60,072 bases of DNA from a virus (IMGVR_UViG_3300045838_000006:1-60072); one strand, 5' to 3'; counted from the stretch's first letter, positions 2,136 to 59,170 are shown. Notes: a model not told the origin generated them from the sequence alone. Made by a program: numbers and translations.

Positions 2136-2489
2136 ATGTTGCCGCCTAAGAGAACCCGCCCCCGCAGCGGAATCCTCCGCGCCCCGCCGCGCGAGTTTCC
2201 CCGGCATCGGAAATTCGTGCGCTCGTTTGTCTGCGCCGTGCCCGGTTGCGGAAAGCCTGCGGTATGCGCTCACCTTCGGACCGCGGCAAACTCAGGCAGA
2301 GCTCTTAGGCCTGCCGATTGGTTCACCGTCCCATTGTGCAACGATCATCATGCCGAGCAAGAAGGACGCACCGGATCGTTCTGCAAAAAATACGGCGTGG
2401 ATCTGTGGGCGCTTGCCGCCGAGCTGGCGCGCAAGTCTCCCGACCTAAAGATGCGGGAAGCGATGCGTGCCACAGCGCACGTCGAATGA
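2136..2489 (+). CDS. DUF968-like putative HNH/zinc-binding nuclease
   Basis: CAVPGC...AHLR...DWFTVPLCNDHHAEQ. Confidence 0.75.
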   Translation: MLPPKRTRPRSGILRAPPREFPRHRKFVRSFVCAVPGCGKPAVCAHLRTAANSGRALRPADWFTVPLCNDHHAEQEGRTGSFCKKYGVDLWALAAELARKSPDLKMREAMRATAHVE

Positions 2490-2515
2490 ATTCTAGGTGA
2501 AGGGATTGCGCACCG

Positions 2516-3034
2516 ATGAATCCAGATACCAGCGTATCACCCGGCGATCGGGAGCCGACCTCCTCCGAGGCCAGCGCGCGGGGGGATGCCCTCAGTTTGT
2601 GGCGCGACCTGTGCGAGAAGGACGATCGCACGTCGCCGGAAGATTATCCCGACATGGCGCTCATTACCGAAGACGAATTTGTCTACGTCTTCAATGCTGG
2701 CGGTAAGGCGTGGCAGGAGCGCGCCGCCACAGCCGAGCGGGAGAGGGACGCTGCGGTTGCGACGTACGAGGATGAAGAGGCCGCGCATCAAGATACGTTA
2801 CGGCTGTGGAAAGAAGCGGCAAACGAGCGCGACCAGCTCCGCGCCCAACTCACCGAGGCGAAGAAGGTGGTGGCGCAGGCGCGTCGAGCGCGCGCGGTTA
2901 TCGGCTTCGATTTGCGCGACAAGATTGAGTGGGGGCCAAACTATAACCAAGCCGTAAAAGATATATACGATCGGTTAACAGCGACCCTCGCCGCCTACGA
3001 CGCCGCACACCCGGAGAATAGCGATGACCGATAG
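2516..3034 (+). CDS. Hypothetical coiled-coil protein
   Basis: ORF whose ATG lies at the end of a boundary repeat. Confidence 0.7.
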   Translation: MNPDTSVSPGDREPTSSEASARGDALSLWRDLCEKDDRTSPEDYPDMALITEDEFVYVFNAGGKAWQERAATAERERDAAVATYEDEEAAHQDTLRLWKEAANERDQLRAQLTEAKKVVAQARRARAVIGFDLRDKIEWGPNYNQAVKDIYDRLTATLAAYDAAHPENSDDR

Positions 3035-3275
3035 CTCAAAGCCGATGAAGCTGCGCCTGATCATCGCCGAGATGGACGATCTCGTAGCCTGCTCCGTGGT
3101 GATATTGGATGGCGACCAACAGCTTTACCGCTCCCGCTGGTATCAAGGCGAAGCCCCGGCGCTGCTGGCCTGTAAGGCGGCTCAGCGTTGGTTCAAACGG
3201 CACGTGTCGGGCGACGCCGCACACCCGGAGCTCCCCTCTCCCCCATCAGAAACCGACAATACGATAGAGACGTGA
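3024..3275 (+). CDS. Hypothetical protein
   Basis: Coupled ORF; lies mostly between 19-bp direct repeats. Confidence 0.6.
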   Translation: MTDSSKPMKLRLIIAEMDDLVACSVVILDGDQQLYRSRWYQGEAPALLACKAAQRWFKRHVSGDAAHPELPSPPSETDNTIET

Positions 3276-3325
3276 CATGATTCTTTTGTCGAAATTCCTG
3301 TTCGGTGTTTGAGGGAGGAGCCAAG

Positions 3326-3994
3326 ATGACAGAGCAACCGTCGGTGGCGACGCTGTATCCGGCCGATGACGAGGACTTTGTGGAAACGCCAATCACGGGC
3401 GTTAAGCCCAGCGGCAAAAGCTGGGCGATCCAACAGCAACGCGGCTGGTATCTCTATTGCGGCGACGATTGCCCGATAGAGCCAAAGGTCGGAATGATCG
3501 CGCGCCTGTATCCGAGAGATAACATCGGGCGACGCATTCGCGGCCTATTCATCGACGGGCAATGTTGTTGGTATCGCAGCGAGGCTGACGACAAAGACTA
3601 TCGCGAAATCCAGATGTACGGCAAAGATGCTGCGGATTGGTTGCGGCGCTGGGATGCGGGCGAAGGCGTGTGGTCAATCGAGATGGGCGGGCCCGGGCCG
3701 GGCTATGAACAGTGCATTCACATAACCTGCGCCGAAATTCTGCGCTGGTTTATCGACAACAACGTAGACGCGACGCTTTGGGACGAGAAGGACACAGCGC
3801 GCTCGATCTTCGATCGGATGGAGAAAGCGGTCTCTGAGGTTCCGGCCGTCAAGAAGCTCGGTCTATCGGGAGCGCAATGGGGCGCGGCACACAATCTCGC
3901 CTGTCAATTCTATCGGAGAGGACCGCGCGCCGTGATGCTGGATGAGCGGGTGAAGGAACGGCATATCCAGGTCTGCCGCGTGTTCCCCGGCTAA
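3326..3994 (+). CDS. Hypothetical protein (repeat-flanked cassette)
   Basis: GGAGGAG RBS and ATG lie inside the reverse repeat 3279-3349; forward repeat at 4001-4064. Confidence 0.8.
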   Translation: MTEQPSVATLYPADDEDFVETPITGVKPSGKSWAIQQQRGWYLYCGDDCPIEPKVGMIARLYPRDNIGRRIRGLFIDGQCCWYRSEADDKDYREIQMYGKDAADWLRRWDAGEGVWSIEMGGPGPGYEQCIHITCAEILRWFIDNNVDATLWDEKDTARSIFDRMEKAVSEVPAVKKLGLSGAQWGAAHNLACQFYRRGPRAVMLDERVKERHIQVCRVFPG

Positions 3995-4134
3995 CAACGT
4001 CGCCACCGCGCACGTCCTATGAACCTACGCGATGCGTCGACCGAAATGTCCTTCGAGTAAATAACAATGTTGGATCGTGACCCTCATCGGTACGGCTATG
4101 GCTGAGCCCTCCTTCCCGCAGCGCGAGAGCCGCC

Positions 4135-4317
4135 GTGGCTGAGCGGCGGCCCGTCTTTCGCCAACGTGACATTGATCGCGCCATAGCGGCAGCGAAGGCG
4201 GCGGGCCTGGAGGTTATTGGCGTCCGCGTAGACAAAGACGGGTTCGAGATTAAGACTGCGCCCCCAGGCCAATCACGACAGGCGGGGGCGAACGAATGGG
4301 ACGAGGACTACTCGTGA
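4135..4317 (+). CDS. Small integrase-associated protein (putative excisionase)
   Basis: FRQRDIDRAIAAAKAAGLEV...NEWD; overlaps the integrase start. Confidence 0.6.
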   Translation: MAERRPVFRQRDIDRAIAAAKAAGLEVIGVRVDKDGFEIKTAPPGQSRQAGANEWDEDYS

Positions 4318-5315
4318 GGCTGCCCTACGTCCATACTTTCCGCGACCGGCACGGCAAGGTGCGCCACTATTTCCGGCGGCCTGGTTACAAGCGGATCGCG
4401 CTGCCGGGCGCGCCGAGCTCCACGGAGTTCAAGGCCGCCTACGCAGCCGCGCTCTCGGGCCACAAACTCGAAATAGGGGAGGGGAGATCCCTGAGCGGCA
4501 CCGTGACCGCAGCGATAGCCGCCTATTACCAGGACGCCTCATTCCGCGCCTTAGCGCCAGCTACGCAGAAGATGCGCCGGGCGATCCTTGAACGTTGGCG
4601 CGAGCGCGACGGCGACAAGCGGCTGGCGACCCTGGAGCCAAAGCATATCGCGTTGATGCTCGGCAGGATGAAACCCTTTGCCGCGCGCAACTGGCTCAAG
4701 ACGCTACGCGGGCTGATGGAGTTCGCCGTGCGCACCCGGCTGCGGCGAGACGATCCCACGCGCGCCTTCAAGCCGGTCAAGGTCAGGCCCGGCACTTTTC
4801 ACACATGGACCGAAGATGAGATCGCGCAATATGAACGCCATCATGCGGTGGGGACACGCGCAAGGCTGGCAATGGCGCTCCTTCTTTACACGGCGGCGCG
4901 GCGAGGCGATATGGTTAGGCTCGGCCCGCAGCATGTCCGTGCCGGGCGGATTAGTTATCGTCAGCAGAAAACGGGACGGGCGCTGGCGATCCCGTTACAT
5001 CCCTCGCTCGCCGATGAACTCTCGCATCATCCGGCTGAACATCTCACGTTCCTGACCACGGCACGAGGCGCACCGTTCTCGGCGGCCGGCTTTGGCAATA
5101 TGTTCCGTCGCTGGTGCAATGAGGCTGGTCTGCCGCATTGCTCAGCGCACGGCTTGCGGAAAGCTCAGGCGCGCCGTCTCGCGGAGGCGGGTTGCTCCGC
5201 GCATGAAATTGCGTCGATTACCGGGCATAGGACGCTTGCGGAGGTTCAGCGGTATGCTGATGCCGCCGATCAAGCGAGGCTCGCCGAGCGGGCCATAGAC
5301 AAGACGAGGAAATGA
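4314..5315 (+). CDS. int: Tyrosine recombinase/integrase
   Basis: Catalytic R (TAARRGD), K (QQKTG), HGLRK, TGH and Y (QRYAD); N-terminal DRHGKVRHYFRR domain. Confidence 0.95.
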   Translation: MRLPYVHTFRDRHGKVRHYFRRPGYKRIALPGAPSSTEFKAAYAAALSGHKLEIGEGRSLSGTVTAAIAAYYQDASFRALAPATQKMRRAILERWRERDGDKRLATLEPKHIALMLGRMKPFAARNWLKTLRGLMEFAVRTRLRRDDPTRAFKPVKVRPGTFHTWTEDEIAQYERHHAVGTRARLAMALLLYTAARRGDMVRLGPQHVRAGRISYRQQKTGRALAIPLHPSLADELSHHPAEHLTFLTTARGAPFSAAGFGNMFRRWCNEAGLPHCSAHGLRKAQARRLAEAGCSAHEIASITGHRTLAEVQRYADAADQARLAERAIDKTRK

Positions 5316-5833
5316 TGGGCTACAGGTTCGTCCATAGCTTTACCGATCGACACGGGAAAGTTCGGCACTATTTTCGCCGTGCGGGCGTCCCTCGAATAGC
5401 ATTGCCGGCACCGAATTCGCCGGAGTTTCGCGCTGCCTATGATGCGGCCCTCGGCAAGCAGCGGCGCGATACCGGTCTAGCGCTTCCGCCTTTCCAGATC
5501 CGAGATAATCGCAAGAGGACAAAGCTCAGCATAGAGCGCCAACGCGCACGCGGTTCGACGGCTGGCGTTTACCTACTTTTGCAGGGAGATCGCATCGTCT
5601 ACGTCGGCTCGAGCGAGGATATGCCCACGCGCGTCGTTGCGCACCGCTCCAATGGACGCCAATTCGATCGCGCCTACTACATCAGCGTGCCCGGCGCTAA
5701 GGACCGCGCGCGTCTGGAGGCGATCTTAATCGCGACCCTAAGACCGGAACAGAACCGGGCCGGGATGCGAAACCTCTTAGGGCAAACCATAGCGTCGAGT
5801 TTGCCAAATGGAGCGCAAGCCATTGAGTTATAA
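5312..5833 (+). CDS. Integrase N-terminal domain fused to a GIY-YIG nuclease
   Basis: First ~48 aa are paralogous to the integrase N-terminus; then GVYLL..IVYVGSS..TRVVAH..LEAILIATLRPEQN. Confidence 0.8.
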   Translation: MMGYRFVHSFTDRHGKVRHYFRRAGVPRIALPAPNSPEFRAAYDAALGKQRRDTGLALPPFQIRDNRKRTKLSIERQRARGSTAGVYLLLQGDRIVYVGSSEDMPTRVVAHRSNGRQFDRAYYISVPGAKDRARLEAILIATLRPEQNRAGMRNLLGQTIASSLPNGAQAIEL

Positions 5834-5850
5834 CGGGGCCAAAATGGGGA

Positions 5851-5863
5851 TGGCGACCCCGGC
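5851..5863 (-). other. Candidate attP core (tRNA 3'-end-like)
   Basis: Reverse strand GCCGGGGTCGCCA ends in CCA and resembles (from recall) an alphaproteobacterial tRNA-Arg 3' end; just downstream of the int operon. Confidence 0.5.
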
Positions 5864-6049
5864 CGTTCTGACATCAACCGGGAGAGTCAGCGCCCTACGA
5901 AAGCAACCCGGCATCTGCGCGCCAAAGGCTTGCGGTTCGGGCTGGCAAACCCCTTCCTCTTATCGCCTCCCGGCACCCAAAGTTTTTAGGGCAAAGGATC
6001 GGCGTTCGACGCGGTGCGTGCGCCCATGCGCCGGGGCTGTGGCGCGGTG

Positions 6050-7384
6050 ATGCGCGGCGGCACCTTGTTCAGCGGCATCGGCGCGCCGGAGTGCGCGGCC
6101 CCCTTCATTGATTGGCGCTGGGCTGCCGAGATCGATCCGTTCGCGAGCGCCGTCCACGCGCATCGCTTCCCCGACACCGTGAACCTTGGCGATGTGACAG
6201 AGATTGATCCCGATGCAATTGAGCCTGTGGACCTCATCGTGTTCGGATCGCCCTGCCAATCGTTCAGCGTCGCCGGAAAGCGGCTCGGACTGGATGACCC
6301 GCGCGGCAACCTGGCCCTCGTCGCCCTTGCGCTTATTGGACGCCTTCGGCCCCGTTGGGTGGTTTTCGAGAACGTGCCCGGCCTCCTGTCATCGGACGAA
6401 GGACGGGACTTTGGCATCTTCCTCGGGCTCCTGGGGCAATGCGGGTATGGGTTCGCCTACCGAATTCTTGACGCTCAGCATTTCGGAGTTCCCCAGCGGC
6501 GGCGCCGCGTCTTCGTTGTCGGATATCTTGGAGACTGGCGACCTGCCGCAGCGGTACTTTTTGAGCCCGAAAGCCTGCGCGGGGATCCTCCGCCGCGCCG
6601 AGAAGCGGGGGAGAGAGTTGCCGCCAGCCTTACGCACGGCGTTGATGGCGGCGGCAAGGGCGGATACGCAGGACGCAGGCGCGAGGACGATGTAAACCTA
6701 ATCGCCCCAACGCTGCCCGCTCGCAAGACGGCGGCGGGCGGCGGTATGGGAACCGACTTTGACTGCGACGGCGGGCTGATCGCCAAGAGCATTCGGGGTC
6801 GCGCACAACCCTCGCACCGCGAGGACAGCGACACATACATCGCCGTCTTCGGCGGCAACCGCCAGTCGGGCGAGATTGAAGTCGCCACGGCGGTCAACGC
6901 GCATGGCGGGCCGCATGGCCGGCTCGATTTCGAGAGCGAGACCTTTGTCGCACACGCGCTCGATGCGTACAGCGCGGGGCGGGCAACGGAAGACGGCACC
7001 GGGAGAGGGACGCCGCTCGTCGCACACGCGCACATGGGTTCGCGTCGCCAAAATGGCGTCGCTATTGGCCCCGTGTGCCCTGGTGGAGACACGTCGAAAA
7101 GCTACTGGAAAGAGATAGAAGTAGCGCGCACCCTCGCCGTTGAAAATCTGCCCTATCAAGGCACCCGCGTCGCATATCCCAATATGAGCGTCCGCAGGCT
7201 CACGCCCCGCGAATGCGAACGCTTGCAGGGCTTCCCCGATAATTGGACGGCCGTAACCTACCGGGGCAAGGCCGCCGCCGATGGACCGCGCTACCGCGCC
7301 CTGGGGAACAGCATGGCGGTCCCGGTCGTGCGATGGATACTGGAGCGCATCGTTGAATTTGCGCGACAGAGAGAAGCCGCATGA
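6050..7384 (+). CDS. C5-cytosine DNA methyltransferase
   Basis: LFSGIG (I), GSPCQSFS (IV), ENVPG (VI), QRRRRVF (VIII), RRLTPRECERLQGFP (IX), ALGNSM (X). Confidence 0.95.
   Translation: MRGGTLFSGIGAPECAAPFIDWRWAAEIDPFASAVHAHRFPDTVNLGDVTEIDPDAIEPVDLIVFGSPCQSFSVAGKRLGLDDPRGNLALVALALIGRLRPRWVVFENVPGLLSSDEGRDFGIFLGLLGQCGYGFAYRILDAQHFGVPQRRRRVFVVGYLGDWRPAAAVLFEPESLRGDPPPRREAGERVAASLTHGVDGGGKGGYAGRRREDDVNLIAPTLPARKTAAGGGMGTDFDCDGGLIAKSIRGRAQPSHREDSDTYIAVFGGNRQSGEIEVATAVNAHGGPHGRLDFESETFVAHALDAYSAGRATEDGTGRGTPLVAHAHMGSRRQNGVAIGPVCPGGDTSKSYWKEIEVARTLAVENLPYQGTRVAYPNMSVRRLTPRECERLQGFPDNWTAVTYRGKAAADGPRYRALGNSMAVPVVRWILERIVEFARQREAA
6213..6695 (+). CDS. Nested out-of-frame ORF resembling the M.EcoHK31I beta polypeptide
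   Basis: SSGSWGNAG..ISEFPS..SSLSDILET..RYFLSPKACAGILRRAEKRGRELPPAL in the +1 frame. Confidence 0.6.
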   Translation: MQLSLWTSSCSDRPANRSASPESGSDWMTRAATWPSSPLRLLDAFGPVGWFSRTCPASCHRTKDGTLASSSGSWGNAGMGSPTEFLTLSISEFPSGGAASSLSDILETGDLPQRYFLSPKACAGILRRAEKRGRELPPALRTALMAAARADTQDAGARTM

Positions 7385-7466
7385 CCCCGGCAGGACGGGC
7401 ATGCTGACCCCCAACCATGATTTTATTGTCGAAGCACCGCATCGGTGCGCAATCGGAGGAGTTCTA

Positions 7467-7766
7467 ATGGCCGACGACGTGCGCGGTGGCGAGGCCGCTC
7501 CCCTGAGACATTACGCGCGAGGTCGATTTGACGGCAGTATCGAAATCGTTGATCGCCAGTTCGATTTTGTCCGGGCGATACTTCCCTATGATTACAGGTT
7601 CACATGCAGCGCCGACCAACACGCCCATGCCGAACGTATTTGTCAGGCGTTAGAAGGGCCTATGGCCTCGCGTGGCGTCGTTCGAATCGCCACAGCTACG
7701 GGGCCTGACAATCTTGGCTCCTCAGAGGGCGCACCGATGCCGTCTTTCGAGAAAAAACCCGCATGA
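7467..7766 (+). CDS. Hypothetical protein (repeat-flanked cassette)
   Basis: GGAGGAG and ATG inside repeat 7419-7491; C-terminus encoded by repeat 7688-7757. Confidence 0.7.
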   Translation: MADDVRGGEAAPLRHYARGRFDGSIEIVDRQFDFVRAILPYDYRFTCSADQHAHAERICQALEGPMASRGVVRIATATGPDNLGSSEGAPMPSFEKKPA

Positions 7767-7794
7767 GCATCGGCTCAACCAACCCGGAGTTCAC

Positions 7795-8226
7795 ATGACG
7801 ATCGGTGGCGACGTTTGGAAGTGCTTTCACTGCGGAGAGACATTCACCGACACCGAGAGCGCGAGGTTGCATTTCGGCGACAACTGTCTGAGCGATCCCG
7901 CTTGCCAGATCGACATCAAGCAAGTGCGCGAAATGGAGCAGCTACACGCTCGCCATCTTGCGGAGGACAGCGACACAGACCGCGCTATGTATCGGATGCA
8001 GGCAGAGCACGCCGTTGCTCTGCGGTGCGAGGAAGAGATCGGCTATGCGCGTGGCCTACACGACGGCAAACGATACTGGATCGAGCAGTTCGTCACGCAA
8101 ATCCTTCACGGCGACGAGACGCATCGGCAATGGTTGCGGGACAAGGGCGAGGAATTCGTTGTCGCCACCGACGGGTCGGCTGACAATCCAGGGACAGAAG
8201 ACTTTGGGGATAAGGATCGGTGTTAG
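7795..8226 (+). CDS. Hypothetical zinc-finger protein (repeat-flanked cassette)
   Basis: WKCFHCGETF...ARLHFG. Confidence 0.75.
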   Translation: MTIGGDVWKCFHCGETFTDTESARLHFGDNCLSDPACQIDIKQVREMEQLHARHLAEDSDTDRAMYRMQAEHAVALRCEEEIGYARGLHDGKRYWIEQFVTQILHGDETHRQWLRDKGEEFVVATDGSADNPGTEDFGDKDRC

Positions 8227-9008
8227 ACAACGAACCAAGATCGTCTCGCAACCCGGCTGTGGCACGGCCGAACCGCTCGTCCGAAGAGATGCGGATGCGA
8301 GAGATTGTCGCCGCGCGGCTCCGCTCTTTCTGGCCCACGGCGCGGATCATCCATGAACTGCCGGTCAGATATTCGACCAACCGGCTCGATATGGCGGCGA
8401 TCACGGAAACTGAATTGATCGGGGTCGAGATCAAATCGTCACGCGACGTGCTGGGCCGTCTAGAGGCGCAGATACGCGCTTTTATGCCTGTCACGCATCG
8501 GCTCTGGGTCTGTCTCGCCCCGGAGCACAACGCGAAACTGCCTGATATTGTCGAGGAGCGCGAGCGCTCGATTCATTACCGCCGACAATTCACTCCGGCG
8601 CAAGAGATCATCGAGCGTGTCGCGGATCGCTGGGTCGAGGTTTGGACCGTCGATGCTGACGCGGGTGAATCGTTCGGCACGCGCGGCGGGTATCTGAGCC
8701 AATGGGATCATCGCATCCCCTGGGGCGCAGCGATGCTCGATATGCTCTGGAATAGCGAATTGGCCGCGATGGGAGGTTCAAATTCTCGACACGACCATCA
8801 AGTGCGCCGCCTCGCTGATGCGATGACCGGCTGCGAGATTGTGCGCGGTGTATGCGCGGCGCTTCGTGCCAGGGACGCATTCGCGGCGGAATCCGACCCG
8901 CCGATCCGAGGCGATGTTTTCGCCACCGCACAAGGCGTGTGTCGCCTAGGTACATCGCCGAACACCGAGTCGATCTTCGAGAATAAAACGACCTCTGACC
9001 CCGGTTGA
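8220..9008 (+). CDS. PD-(D/E)XK nuclease-fold protein, sce7726-like
   Basis: IIHELPV..RLDMAAI..GVEIKSSRDVLGRLEAQI. Confidence 0.7.
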   Translation: MLDNEPRSSRNPAVARPNRSSEEMRMREIVAARLRSFWPTARIIHELPVRYSTNRLDMAAITETELIGVEIKSSRDVLGRLEAQIRAFMPVTHRLWVCLAPEHNAKLPDIVEERERSIHYRRQFTPAQEIIERVADRWVEVWTVDADAGESFGTRGGYLSQWDHRIPWGAAMLDMLWNSELAAMGGSNSRHDHQVRRLADAMTGCEIVRGVCAALRARDAFAAESDPPIRGDVFATAQGVCRLGTSPNTESIFENKTTSDPG

Positions 9009-9012
9009 GCGC

Positions 9013-9192
9013 ATGACCCAGGATACCGACCAACCCGCTGTGGACGTAACGCACCCCGATTATTGCCGTCATTGGGAGCCGGCAGGCTGCAAACTCGGCT
9101 TAGCTTGTGCGTGCTCATGGTTCGGCACGAAGAAACCGTGGAGAGCGCGCATCACCCCCGCTACGGGGCGCGATAATCTGGACCGGAGATGA
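9013..9192 (+). CDS. Small Cys-rich hypothetical protein
   Basis: MTQDTDQPAVDVTHPDYCRHW..CKLGLACAC; ATG inside repeat 9001-9044. Confidence 0.5.
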   Translation: MTQDTDQPAVDVTHPDYCRHWEPAGCKLGLACACSWFGTKKPWRARITPATGRDNLDRR

Positions 9193-9195
9193 GGG

Positions 9196-9483
9196 ATGAG
9201 CGGCTGGATTGATCCTCTCGGAACGCGAGCATTGCACCGTTTCATTCAAGCCGAGCAACATCGGCTAGAGCCGCTAATTGCAGAAGGGTATCGGCGCTGG
9301 CCGAAAAGCCGGAAGCTGTCGAAGCTCCGCGCCCGATATGATGAGCTTGGGAAGCTCCACGCTTTAATCCAAGCCGTCGAGAGACCAGGCATCGAGCTGC
9401 TGCCGTACAAAGAACTGGTGAATGTGCGCGACCGGCATGATCTGATTGACGCGCTCGTGCCACGCGATTTGATGACGCAATGA
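9196..9483 (+). CDS. Hypothetical protein
   Basis: ORF with RBS; followed by a boundary repeat. Confidence 0.65.
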   Translation: MSGWIDPLGTRALHRFIQAEQHRLEPLIAEGYRRWPKSRKLSKLRARYDELGKLHALIQAVERPGIELLPYKELVNVRDRHDLIDALVPRDLMTQ

Positions 9484-9566
9484 CAGCCTCGCCACCGATT
9501 GTCGAGTGAGGATCTAAGCTGAAACGATTGGCACCGTCGAATGAACTCTAGGTGAAGGGATGAAGG

Positions 9567-9761
9567 ATGAGCGGCACTCCGCTGTATTTGCTCGGAGCGG
9601 CGATAATAGGCGGCATTATAGGCCATTATGGCGTGCCACTCACATACGACGATCCGTGGCAATTCTTCTTGGGAGGGCTTGGGCTCTGGATTTGGGGCGG
9701 CTTTCTCGATGCCCTGCTGCTACGACCTCGCCACCGATCGTCGCCTGACGGCCTAAGTTAA
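9567..9761 (+). CDS. Small two-TM membrane protein
   Basis: Two hydrophobic segments. Confidence 0.65.
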   Translation: MSGTPLYLLGAAIIGGIIGHYGVPLTYDDPWQFFLGGLGLWIWGGFLDALLLRPRHRSSPDGLS

Positions 9762-10636: not shown

Positions 10637-10637
10637 G

Positions 10638-51379: not shown

Positions 51380-51580
51380 CTATGCCGCCTCCGGCTTCTC
51401 AGAGGGAGGGTGATATTTCCGCTCCCGTAATTCGTACACGCTGGCGAGGGCGCGGGAATCGATGAAGATCCCCCGCGCAATTCTCGATTCCATTTCCGCC
51501 AACCAATCTACCTGTCTCAGGGTGAGACACCGTTCCGGGTGAAGCCAAGGGAGAGATTTACAGGCATATTGCGATGTCAT
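51380..51580 (-). CDS. Hypothetical protein
   Basis: Coupled ORF. Confidence 0.55.
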   Translation of the reverse strand: MTSQYACKSLPWLHPERCLTLRQVDWLAEMESRIARGIFIDSRALASVYELRERKYHPPSEKPEAA

Positions 51581-52785
51581 GCGTTGCTCTTTTCGTCGAA
51601 GGACATTTCGGTGTTCGACCGCTCGCCTCGTTCCATAGGAAGATTCGCTGTGGCGAAAAGCGGCCCAGCATCGCTCTTGCGGTTCCGGTTCTTCACGGTG
51701 ACGGAATGCCGCCCCTCGCCCTCATAGAATGCCAACCGCTCTTTGATGTCGGCGATGTATTGTGCTTCTCGTTCGATCAGAATGCAGTCACGCCCGGTCG
51801 CTAAAGCTGCAACCCCCGTTGTCCCGGAACCTGCAAACGGATCCAACACCAATCCGCCAGGAGGCGTAACCAATGGGACGAGCCACTTCATCAATTCAAC
51901 GGGCTTCACGGTAGGATGACGCGAGCCCCAGCGATCTTCTTTGTCGGCTTTGGCGCTGTAGAAGAAACGAGCCGCAGAGCCGCTGTCACCGTGCGGCGTG
52001 GCGACCTCTTGCTCGCCGAAATTGCCATAAATGCCATTGCTCTTCTTGGGTAGCTTTGGACGCTCGTATAACTGCCCCGGTGCATCCGGAAACCCCTCTA
52101 GCACTTCCTCGCTGCCGTCGTGGCAGATGTTGGCGGGCCAGCGGCCTATATTAGGATCGAGGTCGTGTATTGTTCCGTCGCGAATACCGCCATTATAAAT
52201 GTGCGGCATCTTATTCTTTGAGAGCGATGCGGGGACACCACGATTGGTGCCAATCCGACACTCATCCACCTGTAGCGTTCTCTTGCCTCCTGGCTTATAG
52301 GCCAAGACAATCGGCTCGTAGGCTGGCTTGAGCATGTCCCGGCGTTTCGGGAATCCACTGCCAAATAGCCACATGATGCAGTCTTGAATGATGAACCCGG
52401 CATCCTCGATTGCCGTTGTCAGACGGTGATAGGTCCGCGTTCCCCCAAAGGCGACAAGGAACGCACCGGGCCGCATGACGTTGGCGATCGTGGCCCATGT
52501 CTTAGGCTGAAATGCGATGTCGCCGCCGTCCCACTGTTGCCCCATAAAGCCAGAAGCGAGCCGCTGGTAATGATTGGTCCCGTCGCTATTGCGTGGCCCC
52601 GGAGCGCCGAACGCGCCGCCAAAGCGCTTCGTCATGTCCGTTAAGTGATAGGGCGGATCGGTCACAACCGCATCGACAGTCGGGAGATGCGGGGCGATCG
52701 CTCGACAGTCACCGTGATAAAGCTCGGCGCCGCCAAACCGTGCCACAGCGCAACCCGTGTGAGATCTTGGCTCGTTGTCTAACAC
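51577..52785 (-). CDS. N6-adenine/N4-cytosine DNA methyltransferase (beta class)
   Basis: VTDPPY..HPTVKP..VLDPFAGSGTTG. Confidence 0.93.
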   Translation of the reverse strand: MLDNEPRSHTGCAVARFGGAELYHGDCRAIAPHLPTVDAVVTDPPYHLTDMTKRFGGAFGAPGPRNSDGTNHYQRLASGFMGQQWDGGDIAFQPKTWATIANVMRPGAFLVAFGGTRTYHRLTTAIEDAGFIIQDCIMWLFGSGFPKRRDMLKPAYEPIVLAYKPGGKRTLQVDECRIGTNRGVPASLSKNKMPHIYNGGIRDGTIHDLDPNIGRWPANICHDGSEEVLEGFPDAPGQLYERPKLPKKSNGIYGNFGEQEVATPHGDSGSAARFFYSAKADKEDRWGSRHPTVKPVELMKWLVPLVTPPGGLVLDPFAGSGTTGVAALATGRDCILIEREAQYIADIKERLAFYEGEGRHSVTVKNRNRKSDAGPLFATANLPMERGERSNTEMSFDEKSNA

Positions 52786-52791
52786 CGATTC

Positions 52792-52989
52792 TTATCCCCC
52801 AAATGCCCGATGAAGGGCCGCACACGCGAACATGAAAGCAAATGGCGCAATGGCTAAGAACGCACCCCACACCGTTGCGCGCCAATCACTCTGCATCCAC
52901 CACGGTGAGGGTTCGTTCTTCACAAACGGCGTTGATCCTGTTAGCCGACAATCGGCCTGCATATCCCCTGTCCCTGACTCACTTGCCAT
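52792..52989 (-). CDS. Small membrane protein
   Basis: C-terminal TM segment. Confidence 0.5.
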   Translation of the reverse strand: MASESGTGDMQADCRLTGSTPFVKNEPSPWWMQSDWRATVWGAFLAIAPFAFMFACAALHRAFGG

Positions 52990-53305
52990 GCTCGGCTTGA
53001 TGCAGAAGGTTCAGAAAGTCGTCGGCATAGAGGATGGTCAGCCAGCGGCGTTTCCCGTTCCTCCGGTGAAACACAGCCGGCATAGATCCAACCCGCGCCT
53101 CCCCTGCGGCCTGTTCGATCCAGTCGAAGGGATTGCCCTTTTCAGTGCGCTTGACCTCTATGTGAACATCCGGGAGCCCGACGCAATCAGGACTGTCGCC
53201 GCCGCCTTGGTATTGAACGCCCCGGCGTGCTTCGGTGAACCCGTGCTCGCGACAGAGGGCGGCCACCTCAAGCTCGCCGACCTTCCCTTTGCGCTTACTG
53301 TTCAC
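52979..53305 (-). CDS. PD-(D/E)XK Holliday-junction-resolvase-like protein
   Basis: SKRKGKVGELE..ARRG.QY.GG.DSPD..HIEVKR. Confidence 0.8.
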   Translation of the reverse strand: MNSKRKGKVGELEVAALCREHGFTEARRGVQYQGGGDSPDCVGLPDVHIEVKRTEKGNPFDWIEQAAGEARVGSMPAVFHRRNGKRRWLTILYADDFLNLLHQAEHGK

Positions 53306-53311
53306 CGCTTC

Positions 53312-53923
53312 CTAATCCTCTGCATGATCCACGCTAGACCTAAGGCTATCCACTGAAGGAGATTCTTCACCCTTTCCCCCAAGGTGAATGTTTTTGTCGA
53401 AAGACGGTATCGGTGTTCCAACTGAGGAGCCCGGATTGTCAGGCAACCCGGCTGTGGCGAGGTAGCGGGCGCGTGCCGCAACTTTCGTGCCGCCATCTGA
53501 GCTTGGTCTAACGCCAGTAACCCGCACTAAGAAGTTCCATGCCGGCGGCCGTCCGCGCCCGGTGTAATGCCACAGGTCTTTAACGCGCCTTTCCGTCAAT
53601 TGGCGCTGTTTGAATAAGCGCATCCAAATGGCGTTCTGCACTGCTTGATAAGTTACTGGTAGGGATTTCGCTATTCGCGTCCATGTCCAATTCGCCATTC
53701 GGCGTTGCATCGCCCAATCAATTTCAGCCTCACTCAGTTCAGGAAGCGGCACTCCGCACGACATGCTGAGCAGGCCAATCTGGCCGAGCGAGCCAAGAAC
53801 CCGCTCTATAGCGTCATATGCAAGTCTAGCCTCCGCATCGTTTTCGAAGGTGATCGTCACTACCGGCGGCCCTTTCGGCCGCCGGACCACAGCCCCGGCG
53901 TCAGACAATCTAGGCTGGCTCAT
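53312..53923 (-). CDS. Hypothetical HTH-containing protein (repeat-flanked cassette)
   Basis: WTWTRIAKSLPVTYQAVQN; repeats at both ends. Confidence 0.65.
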   Translation of the reverse strand: MSQPRLSDAGAVVRRPKGPPVVTITFENDAEARLAYDAIERVLGSLGQIGLLSMSCGVPLPELSEAEIDWAMQRRMANWTWTRIAKSLPVTYQAVQNAIWMRLFKQRQLTERRVKDLWHYTGRGRPPAWNFLVRVTGVRPSSDGGTKVAARARYLATAGLPDNPGSSVGTPIPSFDKNIHLGGKGEESPSVDSLRSSVDHAED

Positions 53924-54189
53924 TCGCTTGCCCACTGTGCAAGTATCCGTCTCAGCGCTTTTCTCTCGACGTCTTGGGCATCCATTTCAGCCAAGAGAGC
54001 CCTCGCTAAATCTCGGCGATGTGCCGCCGAGAATCGGCGGTAATAACTCTCGACGGCCCAGCCAATTGGACGGTTCATCACGCGTGCCAAATGCTTCCGG
54101 GTATGCTTCGGGAACACGACCCGTATAGCTGCGGCTTCGTTAATCACGGTTGCCAACACTTTGGGGGGATGCACTCGCGTACCTCGCAA
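53920..54189 (-). CDS. Hypothetical protein, possible DNA-binding
   Basis: Coupled ORF. Confidence 0.5.
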   Translation of the reverse strand: MRGTRVHPPKVLATVINEAAAIRVVFPKHTRKHLARVMNRPIGWAVESYYRRFSAAHRRDLARALLAEMDAQDVERKALRRILAQWASE

Positions 54190-54252
54190 GCCACACTAGG
54201 GGCGTTGCAACTGTTACGGAGTACGTTGGTGAGGGTCAGCGGCAGCACGGTC

Positions 54253-54501
54253 TTACTCCTCCCCCGATAGGGCTGTGCTGTCGCCCTCGCTGATATTTGC
54301 CGCAGGCGCATCGGTGTTCGACGTGTCACCTGGAATACGCACGACGATCGGTGGCGAGAATTTCATGCGGCGGTGCCGATCAATGCCAAGAGCTGGCCGA
54401 AATTCCCATTCGCTCCATTCGGCAACAGTCAGGACGTAAGGCTTGCCGCCGCGCCATCTGATAGACGCAGCGCATTGCTCCTTACTGCGCGGCATGTTCA
54501 C
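54253..54501 (-). CDS. Hypothetical protein
   Basis: C-terminus encoded by a boundary repeat. Confidence 0.5.
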   Translation of the reverse strand: MNMPRSKEQCAASIRWRGGKPYVLTVAEWSEWEFRPALGIDRHRRMKFSPPIVVRIPGDTSNTDAPAANISEGDSTALSGEE

Positions 54502-55387
54502 TCACTCCTGTAGAGATACCGGATTCGATCTCCAGTTCACCGGGGACGAGCCACGCGCTCCAATCTTCTTCCTCACCGTCAAACTCGGCGAGCGCATGAG
54601 CCAAGTTCAATTCCGAGCCGACAAGCGTACCTGGCTCATAGCTGCGGATATGTCGGCGCGCGGCTTCGATGACCTTGATCGCGCGCTCCCAAAGCGCGTC
54701 GCGAGCGGCTTCTCTATCCACAGCCCCCTTCTCGTGAACTCCGGGCTCGGGGTCGAACACCGATGCGCCTGCGGCAAAAGCAACGTTAGCGGCGCGAACA
54801 TCCTCTGCGAATGGGGTTTCACTAAAAAGGACGGTTCCTATTCCACGCTCGGAACCGTCAACGGCGCACGCAGTTTCATCCTCGACAGAGAGAGAATGTT
54901 CTGTGGAAGCCTCGACCGCCCCTCCCCCAAGGGGCGGATCACCCGCAGAGGCAGGAGTAGCCTGCGGGGGTTCTGTGAGATCTTCGTATTCCACATCGGT
55001 GACGGTGGGCTTGGCTTTCGGCGCTTTTGGAGGAGCAAGACGAGCTACATCGGCACGCTCCATGCCTGGGTTGATTTCACCAGCTTTGATCCCCTGCTCG
55101 AATTGCGCATCTTCAAGCCGTGTCAGCTCCCAAAGTGTGTACCAGGACGCCGGCAAAAGCGTCGCATGCGACGCAATTCGTTTGTCTTTGGAAATCGCCA
55201 TAAGACGTTGCGCGGTGCGTTTCTTGAACGGCAACTCGTTCTCGATCATCCGCTCGAAATCGCCATGCGGGATGAGTTTCTTCGCCTCCATCAAGAGACG
55301 GCCGGTTTCCAGAATGCCGTCGATGGACGACTGCCACGCGGCGGCGATCCGGTTCGCCCAAACTTTTGTCCCGAGAGACAGAGCCAT
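54482..55387 (-). CDS. DUF3102-domain protein
   Basis: ILETGRLLMEAK..PHGDF..LPFKKRTAQRLM. Confidence 0.75.
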   Translation of the reverse strand: MALSLGTKVWANRIAAAWQSSIDGILETGRLLMEAKKLIPHGDFERMIENELPFKKRTAQRLMAISKDKRIASHATLLPASWYTLWELTRLEDAQFEQGIKAGEINPGMERADVARLAPPKAPKAKPTVTDVEYEDLTEPPQATPASAGDPPLGGGAVEASTEHSLSVEDETACAVDGSERGIGTVLFSETPFAEDVRAANVAFAAGASVFDPEPGVHEKGAVDREAARDALWERAIKVIEAARRHIRSYEPGTLVGSELNLAHALAEFDGEEEDWSAWLVPGELEIESGISTGVSEHAAQ

Positions 55388-56386
55388 TTATTTTTCTCCC
55401 GTCTTTTTGGGCGCCTTCTCGAACGGTGTCCCAAACACGACAACCGGGCCATCGGTGATGACGATCTTTTCCAGTTTGGCGCCCTTGTAGGCCGCGTTCC
55501 ACGCGGCAGCGGCGGCCTTCGCGGCGTCCGTCTCGCTGTTGCTCTTTTTCGTGTAGATATGACGGAGGTAGGCTTTGCGCGGATCGCCCATCTGCAGCCC
55601 GTCATCTTCCGCGAGACCGCGCCAGAAGATGTCGGCAATGTCCGGCTGGTATTTGACCGTCAGCAGCGCCACGGCCATCGCGCCGCCCGATTTCAGGTGA
55701 CGCTTCACCGGATTGGCCGGAGCCTTGTCGATCATCTCCTGAAAACTCGCGGCAATCGGCCACCATTGTTCGGCGCTGCGCAGCCGATCCTCGTCCGACC
55801 GGGCGAGGTACGGATCGGCGTGGATTGCCACACGGCGGAAACGCGAGTTCAGCACCAAGACGGCTTTGTAAACGCCTCCTGCAATCTCGTTCCGCAGACC
55901 ATGCACCTCCATGACACCCTCAGCCATGAGGGTATCGGTGACAGTGCGGGCGGCAATCAAACGATCGTGCCGGCGGTAAAGCCGGATGAGCTCTTTCTCG
56001 GTCGGAACATTCGTGACGAGAACCTGAAACCGGATCGCCGCATCGGCTTTAACGACCGCGTGCATCCGGTGTTGACCGTTGACAAGGTGGAGTTCGCCGT
56101 CCGGGGTGCGTCCGAAATGGATCTGCGTCCCTTCGGTCCATTCGTGACGGCGCATCTGTTCGGCGAGCGCCAGAATGTGTTTAGCCCGCAACGGACGCTG
56201 CCGATCGAACCGCCCTGTGGCAATGATGCGCTGCGCCAGCTCCGGCGTGACGGTCAACAAGCCGTCAACGATCAGCTCGGCAAGCGGTTTCGCTTGTTTG
56301 GTCGTCAACAGCTTCGGGCGCGCGCCAACATTGGGCGCCGCCCGTACACCGCCAACGTCGCTATTGGCTCCCTTCGCACTCAACAT
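55388..56386 (-). CDS. ParB-like N-terminal domain protein
   Basis: VTPELA..QRPL..LVNGQHRMHAV. Confidence 0.75.
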   Translation of the reverse strand: MLSAKGANSDVGGVRAAPNVGARPKLLTTKQAKPLAELIVDGLLTVTPELAQRIIATGRFDRQRPLRAKHILALAEQMRRHEWTEGTQIHFGRTPDGELHLVNGQHRMHAVVKADAAIRFQVLVTNVPTEKELIRLYRRHDRLIAARTVTDTLMAEGVMEVHGLRNEIAGGVYKAVLVLNSRFRRVAIHADPYLARSDEDRLRSAEQWWPIAASFQEMIDKAPANPVKRHLKSGGAMAVALLTVKYQPDIADIFWRGLAEDDGLQMGDPRKAYLRHIYTKKSNSETDAAKAAAAAWNAAYKGAKLEKIVITDGPVVVFGTPFEKAPKKTGEK

Positions 56387-56630
56387 GATGTGTCCCTCTG
56401 CATTAAAGATGAGAAAGCGCGATGATGATGCCGGCCATGACAGCCCAGCTCGCCACGCTCAGCGCGAAGATGACCGGAATGCACACGGCTAGAGGTAGAG
56501 GCTGAGAGCGAGGCATCGAGACGCGAGGCATGGCTAAGGTGCTCCCGGTTAACGTTAGCTGTTACAATTCGCGCCTAACCTGGAATTGTTGTTCTTGCTT
56601 AACCAAACAGGGGGTTTGTAGGCTCAAAAG

Positions 56631-56849
56631 ATGAGAAAGACCGTCATCCGTCCCGCTCGAAACACTAAGGCGCTGAAACGCGTCTTTGATCGGCCACCCG
56701 AGACGCCAGATGGCGGCGCGATGGCTCTGTTTCGGCTGCTCTATCCGATGGGGCCGCGCGAGCGGGAAGAGGCCCTCGATTTTTTCTGCGAGTGCCTCAT
56801 GGCCGCCCGAGGCCAGCGGGACCGCAAGAAGGCACCGAAAATCCATTAG
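56631..56849 (+). CDS. Hypothetical protein
   Basis: Convergent with cro; follows an AT-rich promoter-like region. Confidence 0.45.
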   Translation: MRKTVIRPARNTKALKRVFDRPPETPDGGAMALFRLLYPMGPREREEALDFFCECLMAARGQRDRKKAPKIH

Positions 56850-57028
56850 GAGCATGCCGTCTGCTTTTCAAAAGCATCATCGGTCAACGAAATGCCGCGC
56901 TCGGCGGCCTTGCGCAGCAAGGGCAGGCGCCATTTGTGCGGCACGCCACGCTGGCGCCATTTCTTTCGCGCAACAGCGGAAACGCCCAGCTCCTCCGCCA
57001 ACCTATCGATGAGGGCATCCTTGTCCAT
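56846..57028 (-). CDS. cro: Cro-like repressor
   Basis: LAEELGVSAVARKKWRQRGVPHKWR; divergent from cI. Confidence 0.75.
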   Translation of the reverse strand: MDKDALIDRLAEELGVSAVARKKWRQRGVPHKWRLPLLRKAAERGISLTDDAFEKQTACS

Positions 57029-57036
57029 CGCCGCTA

Positions 57037-57065
57037 TTTATAGGGACAGATCGTCCCCTCGTCAA
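57037..57065 (-). promoter_or_regulatory. Leftward sigma70 promoter with embedded operator
   Basis: TTGACG-17 bp-TATAAA on the minus strand; imperfect palindrome GGGACAGATCGTCCC (57043-57057) between the boxes. Confidence 0.8.
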
Positions 57066-57116
57066 GCGCCATATCGGGACGTGCCGCCCAAACCTGGATT
57101 TGTCATGCTTCTTCGT

Positions 57117-57356
57117 ATGGACGAAGCCGAGACGAACCTTGCGCGCGGGTATATCAACCGCATCGCCGAACTCAGAAAGGCGAGGGGGCTAACCCAAGCC
57201 GAAATGGCGCAGCATCTCGGAATCTCGCTCGACCGATATAAAAAATATGAACGTCGGTCCCTGCTGCCGCCCTATCTTCTGCCGCGATTTGCCGCCATCG
57301 TCGATCGCCCGATCGACTACATCATCACCGGCCGCAAACCTCGCTCCCGCTCCTAA
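57117..57356 (+). CDS. CI-like XRE-family repressor (HTH only)
   Basis: RIAELRKARGLTQAEMAQHLGIS..YKKYE..IDYIITG. Confidence 0.85.
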   Translation: MDEAETNLARGYINRIAELRKARGLTQAEMAQHLGISLDRYKKYERRSLLPPYLLPRFAAIVDRPIDYIITGRKPRSRS

Positions 57357-57405
57357 CCTGTTATAAACCAAGAATAATCAAAGGCGACGAATTTTCCCCC
57401 TGAGA

Positions 57406-57449
57406 GGGGACATTTTGTCCTTGACGGGGACAAATCGGCCCTTTAGTAT
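57406..57449 (+). promoter_or_regulatory. Rightward sigma70 promoter with two operators
   Basis: TTGACG(57421)-17 bp-TAGTAT; operators GGGGACATTTTGTCC and GGGGACAAATCGGCCC. Confidence 0.8.
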
Positions 57450-57481
57450 GTGTCCCGGAACAAGGTTCAGGGGTGCCGACC

Positions 57482-57694
57482 ATGGCTCTCAAATACGCAG
57501 CCGAATACGACAAAGAGGCTCGGGCCTGGAACGTCGTTGACACGCTGACCGGCGACATCGTGCGGATGTGCGGCGGCGGGAAGCGCGGCGAGGAACAGGC
57601 CAAGCGCTCCGCCGACAATCACAATCAGGCGTGGCTCGTCGGCGGGATCGCCGAATACGACGAGCGCAAGCGGCTGGAGCGGGAGAACTCCTAA
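57482..57694 (+). CDS. Hypothetical protein
   Basis: First ORF after the rightward promoter. Confidence 0.7.
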   Translation: MALKYAAEYDKEARAWNVVDTLTGDIVRMCGGGKRGEEQAKRSADNHNQAWLVGGIAEYDERKRLERENS

Positions 57695-57797
57695 TGCCCG
57701 TCCGTCTTGATCCGCCCCACCGCTTTATTTCTTGCGCGGCATCGGTGTTCGACGCGTCACCAAGATTGTCACACAACCCGGCTGTGGAGAGGTAGTC

Positions 57798-58106
57798 GTG
57801 GCAACCGACAACGACCTCTTGAACATCGCCGAGAAACTGCGGCGCGAGGCGGCCGTGACAGAAGAGCTGCATCCCGACGATAGCGAAATCGAGGTCATGC
57901 GTGAAGCCGCCGACGTGATCGAAACGCTATGGGACGAACGGGCCACGCTGCGCCGCCGCATCGACGATCTGAAACAGGCGATTGCTCAATTCCACAATCA
58001 CGATGTCCCGATGGCCTTCGATGCTGTCGCGGAAATCATTGATCGTGAGCGCAAGAAGGTTCGCCGACTGACACGCGAATTGCTCAGCGCAGGAGACCGC
58101 CCATGA
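57798..58106 (+). CDS. Hypothetical protein
   Basis: GAGG RBS and GTG just after a boundary repeat. Confidence 0.7.
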   Translation: MATDNDLLNIAEKLRREAAVTEELHPDDSEIEVMREAADVIETLWDERATLRRRIDDLKQAIAQFHNHDVPMAFDAVAEIIDRERKKVRRLTRELLSAGDRP

Positions 58107-58155
58107 CCGACGACGGAGCCCAGAGTTCACAAGCCCCGTCAGTGGCGACGTTGTA

Positions 58156-58359
58156 ATGGCCGCCGCTCGTAAAATTCAGATTTGGTTTCGGCCAGATCAA
58201 ATTGACTTGCTTCGGTCGGTTCTAACAGCGACGGAGAGCGAGCTACGCGATGGTCGGCTGAATAGCAGGCTCGAACGGAAGATGCTGAACTTCTGTCGGC
58301 GACGGATTGATGAGCTGCTTGCGCTACTGCCGCCAGCGCAAGACGGAGAGGCGCCATGA
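58156..58359 (+). CDS. Hypothetical protein
   Basis: Coupled ORF. Confidence 0.6.
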   Translation: MAAARKIQIWFRPDQIDLLRSVLTATESELRDGRLNSRLERKMLNFCRRRIDELLALLPPAQDGEAP

Positions 58360-58559
58360 CGCTCGCCGACGCCTTCCGCGTTCACCTGTCCGAATTGCTC
58401 ACCAAAGCCAAACAGATCGGCGTCTCTGATGAGGATTGCGAACAGGCCCGGCTCGAATGCGAGGACATGCTGAGCAACCTGTTCTATCGGGTCGAGCGCG
58501 AACAGGAACGCCCCGTCCGTATCGAGCGGACAATCGGCACAGCGCCAAGTGCTTACTAG
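58356..58559 (+). CDS. Hypothetical protein
   Basis: Coupled ORF. Confidence 0.6.
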   Translation: MTLADAFRVHLSELLTKAKQIGVSDEDCEQARLECEDMLSNLFYRVEREQERPVRIERTIGTAPSAY

Positions 58560-58570
58560 GAGACAGAGAA

Positions 58571-59134
58571 ATGGCCGAACTGACACTAGAGGCGCTCGGC
58601 ATTCCTATCGAGGAAATTATCGAGCGCGTTGTCGAGCGGATCGCCGAGAAGGCGATGCAAGATTGGTCTGCAGCAGGCGCTACAGGTCGCCCGCACGTCA
58701 GTTTCGCTCAACTCATTGAGGAGCGCGTGATCGACCGCGCCAACGACGCGATCGACCATATCGCCGCTGAGAACGTGCTGCCGAACATCACCTCCTATGT
58801 CGAGAACCTCTGCTTACAGGAAACAAACAAATGGGGCGAGGCGACTGGCCGCAAGATGACCTTCACCGAATACCTCGTCGAGCGCGCCGAGAAATGGATC
58901 ACTGAGCCCGTTAACTACCAGGGCAAGAGCAAAGGCGAAGATAGCTTTAGCTGGCGCCCCTACGGCACGCGCATCTCGTACCTGATCCATGAACATCTCG
59001 ACAGCCAGATTGGCACCGCGATTAAGGAAGCTCTGAAAGACCTCAATAGCTCAGTCGCCAAGGGCCTTCGCGACGCGGTGATGATCCAAATTCGTGAAGT
59101 GCTCGACCGCCTCAAAGTAGAGGTCAAAGCGTAA
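58571..59134 (+). CDS. Hypothetical phage protein
   Basis: AGGAG RBS; flanked by 20-bp direct repeats. Confidence 0.8.
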   Translation: MAELTLEALGIPIEEIIERVVERIAEKAMQDWSAAGATGRPHVSFAQLIEERVIDRANDAIDHIAAENVLPNITSYVENLCLQETNKWGEATGRKMTFTEYLVERAEKWITEPVNYQGKSKGEDSFSWRPYGTRISYLIHEHLDSQIGTAIKEALKDLNSSVAKGLRDAVMIQIREVLDRLKVEVKA

Positions 59135-59170
59135 TCGGCACAGCGCCGAGTGAGTGGTGAGGGAGAACCG

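Follow-up and report, generated by a model that had tools for sequence, protein, structure and literature searches.

The closest described relatives, by location, of the repeat family considered here are the PeSLs of T4-type phages and the SAS and ESAS elements of Cluster K mycobacteriophages. PeSLs place sigma-70 promoters and stem-loop terminators at junctions in plastic, ORFan-rich early regions; in the available excerpt of that paper they are proposed as linkers for single-gene shuffling, and mini-circles and indels between close relatives are shown experimentally (PMC2839356). [quoted passage not shown] Here we report on a family of repeats of about 75 nt, referred to as caps, in a virus genome from IMG/VR (IMGVR_UViG_3300045838_000006). 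The whole stretch that was analysed, 60,072 bases long, is called the window. The record is complete, and the first 127 bases recur at its end, giving a circle of 59,945 bp.

Comparison with the excerpts of these two papers indicates that the cap family shares the location of PeSLs and of SAS/ESAS and their association with gene starts, adds a two-orientation layout and is known from one genome. Like PeSLs, caps are repeats of the order of 75–100 nt at plastic early gene junctions which take in the upstream stop codon and the downstream Shine–Dalgarno sequence and start codon, and all 21 copies are found at gene junctions of one early arc of the circle. PeSLs, however, carry a promoter and a stem-loop, whereas caps show neither; caps also occur in both orientations with the same end towards the gene, while a single orientation for PeSLs is inferred from the promoter-to-start layout given in the excerpt. 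The likeness to SAS and ESAS lies in the restriction of the repeats to the non-structural half of a temperate phage genome of about 60 kb and in their tie to translation starts, but caps are about 75 nt long, have start codons at offsets of about 17, 45 and 73, and in 10 of the 21 cases lie antisense at gene 3' ends. As far as these sources describe the classes concerned, membership of the PeSL and SAS classes fails, as does membership of integrons and of miniature inverted-repeat transposable elements (MITEs), because at least one defining feature of each system is absent.

An initial annotation of the window had proposed about 20 degenerate copies of GCCACMG followed at a distance by CACCGA, running with transcription and absent from 13–48 kb, and had suggested a comparison with shuffled sequence. 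With a spacer of 28–40 nt this motif has 12 exact matches, six on each strand, compared with 0.08 expected; none of 100 shuffles reached 12, and the pattern written backwards has no match in the window. A repeat finder run without the pattern also recovers the family (as its repeats D3, D5, D12, D15, D20, I1–I3, I5 and I7), including the inverted pair that had been given as an example (7687–7756 and 53391–53460, 81% identity over 70 nt). The third iteration of a hidden Markov model (HMM) search with nhmmer returned 22 matches at E ≤ 1, of which 20 have E ≤ 0.01 and one (53887–53916) has E = 0.039, in agreement with the number first proposed. The remaining match, at 42054–42098 (E = 0.13), lies outside the arc and is the only one in 13–48 kb. 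Since 20 block shuffles gave 0–4 matches each at E ≤ 1 and none at E ≤ 0.01, it is within noise, and the absence of copies from that region stands. The 21 copies counted all fall in 2463–9812 or 49824–58157, which together form a single 20.1-kb arc on the circle (chance probability 1e-10). This arc carries both early operons; the recombination genes between the two repeat-bearing stretches are without HMM-supported caps. The repeat family is real and unusual.

The unit is described here in a common orientation, the reverse complement of that used initially, in which it reads 5' to 3' from a T-run through TCGGTG to CKGTGGCG. The strand given below for each copy is the one on which it reads in this way, and sense and antisense are relative to the local genes. 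Beginning from the outer end, a T-rich tract, often with GTCGAA, is followed by about 9 nt, box 1 (ATCGGTGT), TCGAC or TAGAC, a centre such as AGCCAAGAT, about 15 nt and box 2 (CKGTGGCGA). The T-rich tract and box 1 make up the outer half and box 2 the inner half. In an alignment of the 16 full-length copies the only fully invariant columns are TCGG, with the adjoining TG nearly so, and C-GTGG, and the original description of conserved boxes with a variable interior is supported. The two boxes are near-direct repeats of each other and are separated by 38–42 nt, not by the fixed spacing first described. Two further details also need correction: GTCGAA/GTCTAA, said to precede the motif, is actually inside the spacer directly 5' of CACCGA, and TTCGAnAAAA, said often to follow it, does so in seven of the 16 aligned copies and is missing from the rest. 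Mean identities of 50% among sense copies, 50% among antisense copies and 47% between the two indicate that sense and antisense copies belong to one family.

No evidence for a conserved structure was obtained. RNAalifold gives no consensus pair for the 16 copies, single copies fold no better than shuffled versions in either orientation (z between −1.24 and +1.07), and the same is true of abutting pairs of copies (z between −1.0 and +2.0). Rfam has no match at the gathering score across the whole window. Scans for sigma-70 promoters and intrinsic terminators stayed at chance level (counts of 5 and 3, versus averages of 4.0 and 4.5 in shuffled sequence); promoter-like sites coincide with none of the copies and no terminator-like site falls within the box-1-to-box-2 core of any copy, although one weak site of seven pairs (51571–51587) abuts the T-rich end of the copy at 51589–51659. 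Because at least two reading frames run through box 2 and the start codons stand at differing model offsets, the conservation is neither that of a peptide nor simply that of a Shine–Dalgarno sequence and start codon. As the invariant columns form two linear boxes with no conserved fold, the conservation looks like sequence recognition rather than structure.

Polarity was scored on our own curated gene list, in which the long open reading frame (ORF) 54482–55387 is assumed to be two genes split at a cap. All 11 sense copies overlap or abut a start codon on the same strand, and all ten antisense copies are at the 3' end of a gene, the stop codon being within 12 nt in six of them and 20–79 nt further on, after read-through, in the other four. 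Every copy lies at a gene junction with its box-2 end facing a gene core. The polarity along transcription noted in the initial annotation is confirmed by these counts. Its enclosure of single genes holds for the six genes that it named, each of which sits in an inward-facing inverted pair, but not as a rule: the 11 single genes with copies at both junctions comprise six flanked by sense and antisense copies, two by sense and sense, one by antisense and antisense and two by antisense and sense. Along the leftward operon the order of sense (s) and antisense (a) copies is s a s a s a s, and along the rightward operon it is s s a s a s s a s a s a a a. The start codon is in some copies an ATG at the centre, preceded by GGAGG, in others a GTG within box 1, and in others a codon after box 2. 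Head-to-head copies occur at three junctions (7687–7816, 8153–8272 and 8913–9043), and half-element models revealed no hidden partner beside the solo copies. All of the cargo genes, as judged from one consensus assembly, are co-oriented with their operon.

The cargo is of accessory type, consisting of two DNA methylases, an sce7726-like gene and ORFans. The gene at 6014–7384 (plus strand) encodes a C5 cytosine DNA methylase (Pfam PF00145, E = 1e-56) and has a cap at its 5' end only; that at 51577–52785 (minus strand) encodes an N6/N4 DNA methylase (Pfam PF01555, E = 3.7e-31). The PF26915, or sce7726-like, gene is at 8220–9008 (plus strand), and 3326–3994 (plus strand) belongs to a large uncharacterized family with 498 matches. 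A fifth, 53312–53923 (minus strand), is an ORFan with no Pfam, PHROG, NCBIfam or PADLOC match and no homologue besides itself, and it stands outside the boundary comparison, which covers the four cargo genes having homologues. In each of these four, conservation begins 0–5 codons past the box-2, or inner, edge of the cap. The conserved core of the PF26915 protein extends from Asn18 to Ile229, with cap edges at about residues 17 and 232; the N6 methylase aligns with a relative over residues 18–377, with edges at about 17 and 376; and the C5 methylase shows homology over residues 16–452, with its 5' edge at about residue 11. In 3326–3994 the edge is at about residue 10, the ten residues before Tyr11 being encoded by the repeat; the core continues from Tyr11 to the last residue and the antisense copy follows 6 nt after the stop codon. 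In other phages the cargo families have ordinary Shine–Dalgarno–ATG starts, and the repeat was present in 0 of 23 and 0 of 27 contexts. The one-gene cassettes of the initial annotation are therefore fairly described, in structural terms, as sharing a common socket, since the repeats end where the conserved cores begin.

The copies look mosaic, but because the sequences are short the signs of exchange between them are suggestive only. The similarities of left halves and of right halves correlate weakly (r = 0.17, a value reached by 75 of 2000 Mantel permutations), and the nearest relatives differ between the halves in 11 of 16 copies. The outer halves of the antisense copy a54293 and the sense copy s54782 match perfectly over 27 nt as an inverted repeat (I5; 54296–54322 and 54752–54778), while their inner halves are unrelated. 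This repeat encloses about 430 nt with two small ORFs and, as the two copies are by far the most alike of the cognate pairs, probably reflects a recent event. The sense copies s8203 and s52804 are 93% identical over 40 nt (I2), yet they head different genes on opposite arms. They differ by a 9-nt inverted block at equivalent positions (8247–8255 and 52749–52757; offsets 47 and 50 in the extracted copies), which suggests a small inversion or template-switch event. Identity is slightly higher in cognate flanking pairs than in non-cognate ones (53 versus 47%; 2 of 120 permutations).

The interpretation that we favour, to which we assign a probability of roughly 40%, is that the caps are lineage-specific gene-end elements of about 75 nt which act at the DNA level and form sockets for accessory genes. 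The box-2 end directly adjoins the conserved core of one gene, at its 5' end if the cap is sense and at its 3' end if the cap is antisense. A sequence-specific protein would recognize both invariant boxes. In the two early operons, the boundaries between modules would be marked by caps, as sockets at which accessory genes would have been put in, swapped or lost by recombination within or between caps. A sense cap would give an incoming core a Shine–Dalgarno sequence, a start codon and a short leader, while an antisense cap would merely be read through as a non-conserved tail.

A number of points weigh against this interpretation. No protein that binds the boxes was identified, and no gain, loss, inversion or excision was seen in the one consensus assembly, for which there is no close phage relative in the collections searched (the best identities are 64% for the terminase, 72% for ERF and 62% for the integrase). 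The spacing of the boxes is loose for a rigid protein. The inward-facing arrangement, found in 6 of 11 doubly flanked genes compared with 25% (binomial P = 0.034), is not general. The longest exact match between copies has a median of 9 nt and reaches at least 20 nt in 2 of 210 pairs, and so little exact identity puts ordinary homologous recombination between the copies out of reach. The mosaic signal comes from very short sequences. Unconserved N-terminal and C-terminal extensions are common anyway, so that the boundary match carries less weight than would a breakpoint in the DNA of close relatives.

The element was also sought elsewhere. Relatives were collected using the terminase, the 55388–56386 protein (for which none was found), PF26915, ERF (viral and metagenome collections), the integrase (genome and viral collections) and the 3326 family. 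Their contexts, together with 116 loci from a pattern scan, gave 345 other loci (4.07 Mb, including 80 bacterial genome loci), and the element is absent from all of them. The 116 loci, each a single match in a viral contig to TCGGTGTTMGAC..GTGGC, were treated as chance, none fitting the full model, and a stricter three-box pattern matched nothing in the collections of viral and of genome contigs. Five full records of terminase relatives gave matches at control level only, at one mismatch. A blastn search of GenBank phages (plasmids were not searched) returned nothing for a single copy or for 7400–9100, and for 2000–12000 it returned one unrelated 394-nt match. Two Logan contigs of 36,111 and 18,406 bp were considered as variants and rejected, as their proteins are identical to those of the window and they represent the same phage. 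Screens for analogous repeat families in the relatives gave no usable result: a self-blast was too insensitive even on this window, and an 8-mer screen was swamped by GC-rich words. We note that in two Xanthobacter genome loci (L207 and L216) single 8-mers occur 44–47 times within about 20 kb around integrase relatives; these may belong to a host-genome repeat family unrelated to the caps. A search of the literature for comparable junction repeats turned up nothing alike, which is not proof that none is in print.

A serious rival, although a less probable one, is that the caps are cis-regulatory elements of early gene expression with no part in gene exchange, acting either as an operator-like site for a DNA-binding protein of the phage or the host or through RNA pairing. 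The RNA version would have the antisense copy at the 3' end of a cistron pair with the sense copy that bears the ribosome-binding site of that cistron or of the one after it, and so limit or couple translation. Consistent with this, predicted sense–antisense RNA duplexes have a mean of −49 kcal/mol compared with −36 kcal/mol for shuffled partners, and cognate pairs reach −57 kcal/mol, which was matched in 123 of 5040 permutations. Most antisense copies are read through by upstream ORFs, as ribosome-dependent melting needs, but a4063 and a9536 lie wholly past the stop codon, and the abutting antisense–sense junctions, as noted above, fold like shuffled sequence. The two short invariant boxes suit a binding site, the copies are confined to the two operons leading away in opposite directions from the immunity region, and the sense copies are without exception on start codons, several with GGAGG and ATG. 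However, the place of the start codon within the element varies (box 1, the centre or after box 2), sigma-70 promoter and terminator signals are absent at the copies, with scan counts at chance, and the boxes are unlike the operator-like GGGACA/TGTCCC repeats at the immunity promoter. Regulation alone also leaves unexplained why caps end at the edges of gene cores.

An unlikely extension of the socket interpretation is a protein-guided single-gene cassette system, in which the boxes would be recognized by the tyrosine integrase or by a chimera of an integrase N-terminus with a GIY-YIG-like endonuclease, and genes would be captured, swapped or flipped. Cutting or strand exchange would take place at the caps, and exchange between co-infecting genomes could include the DNA methylases. 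The chimeric ORF (5312–5833) directly follows the integrase gene. Its residues 6–55 show 65% identity to the integrase N-terminus (in a 51-residue alignment), and the stretch from about residue 68 to 154 matches an endonuclease PHROG and nuclease-like models of PADLOC; no equivalent of this nuclease half lies next to any of 125 related integrases. This ORF is a candidate actor at the caps.

Mobile insertion cassettes and MITEs, such as MIC231 and the Correia elements, have inverted ends around a passenger gene or a short interior and no transposase of their own. We consider it improbable that the caps are the ends of a non-autonomous element of this kind, whether a mobile insertion cassette with one passenger gene or a palindromic MITE at junctions, moved by a transposase supplied in trans. 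Inverted copies facing inwards do enclose six or seven genes, each end carries two boxes in direct repeat, an arrangement shared with multi-site transposon ends, and the resemblance between cognate ends slightly exceeds that between non-cognate ones. Against this, target-site duplications were found in none of the six units examined, the sole transposase in the window is of the IS1595 family with 29-nt ends unrelated to the caps, and the caps are not dispersed in the other genomes searched, being absent from the 4.07 Mb and, as the three-box pattern, unmatched in the contig collections. The MITE-like element suggested in the initial annotation is not supported by these results, and in-frame insertion exactly at the edges of gene cores is not expected of transposition.

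Integron attC sites are folded imperfect palindromes (R''-L''...L'-R') of uniform orientation that are served by the IntI integrase, and the segments of shufflons are alternative 3' ends of one gene, present in both orientations. Caps resemble the former in that single promoterless genes are bounded by short conserved boxes with a variable interior, core and inverse-core boxes flanking the genes of an integron array, and the latter in having several short sites in both orientations that flank segments, together with a tyrosine recombinase; unlike those of shufflons, the segments are complete genes unrelated to one another. It is nevertheless highly improbable that the phage tyrosine recombinase operates the caps as a system of site-specific inversion or of integron-like cassettes, in which abutting antisense and sense copies would act as attC-like palindromes or single genes would flip between inverted caps: although single genes are flanked by inverted sites, copies stand head to head at three junctions and the recombinase gene lies within the arc, followed by the chimera with its N-terminal domain, the caps have no conserved hairpin, are mixed in orientation (11 sense and 10 antisense) and in many cases solo, their cargo is uniformly co-oriented in this assembly, and the integrase is a generic tyrosine recombinase, not IntI-like, which falls under every curated cut-off including the integron-related one (best Xer-type NCBIfam models 16–33 bits, cut-offs 178–371 bits; only Phage_integrase in Pfam) and has relatives beside tRNA genes like ordinary phage integrases, so that the integron-like system first suggested is not upheld. 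The remaining probability falls to neutral relics or to something else not considered.

The individual copies in the first of the two stretches are as follows. On the minus strand, a2524 (2463–2524, E = 2.9e-8) spans the stop codon of 1992–2489 and the ATG of 2516–3034. The plus-strand copy s3282 (3282–3359, E = 4.3e-11) has GGAGG and ATG 3326 at a start offset of 44, and a4063 (3991–4063, minus strand, E = 1.1e-8) begins 6 nt past the stop codon at 3994. The start of the C5 methylase gene is covered by s5983 (5983–6050, plus strand, E = 1.4e-6), while s7422 (7422–7498, plus strand, E = 5.6e-9) carries GGAGG and ATG 7467. At the 3' end of 7467–7766 is a7757 (7687–7757, minus strand, E = 2.3e-11), which belongs to inverted repeats I1 and I3. 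Two copies consist of the box-2 half only: s7779 (7779–7816, plus strand, E = 0.0092), with ATG 7795, and a8192 (8153–8192, minus strand, E = 0.00041; I7), within the 3' end of 7795–8226. In s8203 (8203–8272, plus strand, E = 8.8e-13) the start codon is GTG 8220 in box 1, and a8988 (8913–8988, minus strand, E = 1.8e-11) is within the 3' end of 8220–9008. The last two, both on the minus strand, are a9536 (9481–9536, E = 1.9e-6), which begins at the stop codon at 9483, and a9796 (9720–9812, E = 2.4e-8), which has a second left half at 9784–9812 and a 17-nt tandem duplication of its box-1 part at 9763–9797 (an 18-nt probe matches at 9763 and 9780).

In the second stretch, s49891 (49824–49891, minus strand, E = 1.2e-10) is sense to minus-strand genes and has GTG 49874 in box 1. 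The N6/N4 methylase gene has a51589 (51589–51659, plus strand, E = 1.6e-9) at its 3' end and s52804 (52735–52804, minus strand, E = 1.7e-12), with GTG 52785 in box 1, at its start. Similarly, a53391 (53391–53465, plus strand, E = 2.5e-13) is in the 3' part of 53312–53923, and the partial copy s53916 (53887–53916, minus strand), the weakest counted, is at its start. These are followed by a54293 (54293–54366, plus strand, E = 7.5e-12) and by s54782 (54718–54782, minus strand, E = 6.8e-9) inside the long ORF 54482–55387. The final two copies are sense and on the plus strand: s57725 (57725–57798, E = 1.5e-13), with GTG 57798 after box 2, and the box-2 half s58108 (58108–58157, E = 6.6e-5), with ATG 58156 at its end. 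Two possible degenerate copies were not counted. One, sense and on the plus strand at 9015–9043, is at the start of the small ORF 9013–9192 and is weak (half-model E = 2.6, within the shuffle range); the other, antisense and on the minus strand at 59128–59180, was missed by the HMMs but resembles a2524 (local alignment score 36 to 2460–2520). The latter matches the end of the range given in the initial annotation.

The genome codes for a YqaJ-like exonuclease and an ERF annealing protein, as well as the tyrosine integrase, the C5 and N6/N4 DNA methylases, the IS1595-family transposase and an HTH_36 protein (50285–51067). An immunity-type region at about 56.5–57.4 kb contains a helix-turn-helix regulator gene and a TTGACG-17-TAGTAT promoter-like site, and the two operons diverge there. 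At 57390–57450, beside the regulator gene, GGGGACA and TGTCCC words are repeated around this site; these are probably repressor operators and unrelated to the cap boxes. The integrase relatives are overwhelmingly alphaproteobacterial and adjoin tRNA genes. On the basis of the integrase, the immunity-type region and the taxa and tRNA neighbours of the integrase relatives, the virus is a temperate phage and its host is probably an alphaproteobacterium. A search for attP using the tRNA genes that neighbour related integrases gave only chance matches of 8–14 nt, and attP was not located.

Three other features of the window were noted. An apparent IS1595-family insertion occupies 11099–13268, at the edge of the early arc; its transposase gene is at 12033–12956 on the minus strand (NCBIfam, 198.8 bits), and it is bracketed by 29-nt inverted repeats (11099–11127 and 13240–13268) which are 93% complementary. 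In the structural region, four tandem copies with a 54-nt period and 68–74% identity to the reference lie at 23220–23419 in the minus-strand ORF 22691–24112, and probably encode an 18-residue protein repeat. A 27-nt motif, by eye a short GC-rich palindrome beside an A-run, occurs three times among the repeat-finder results (17362–17388, 31800–31826 and 36110–36136) and is a possible terminator for structural operons on the minus strand.

It has long been asked how phages acquire and shed small accessory genes precisely at gene boundaries, and linker sequences, morons and PeSLs are among the answers proposed. The present genome is an unusually clear case: a single repeat stands at both ends of genes that are unrelated to one another, invariably turns one and the same end towards the gene, stops within a few codons of the conserved core and provides the start codon. 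If the caps are recombination sites, they would represent a second, mechanistically different form of phage cassette shuffling and the first in a temperate phage of alphaproteobacterial type; a true cassette system would amount to an integron equivalent in phages, assembled from other components. If the caps are instead regulatory, they would constitute an unusual two-orientation control element.

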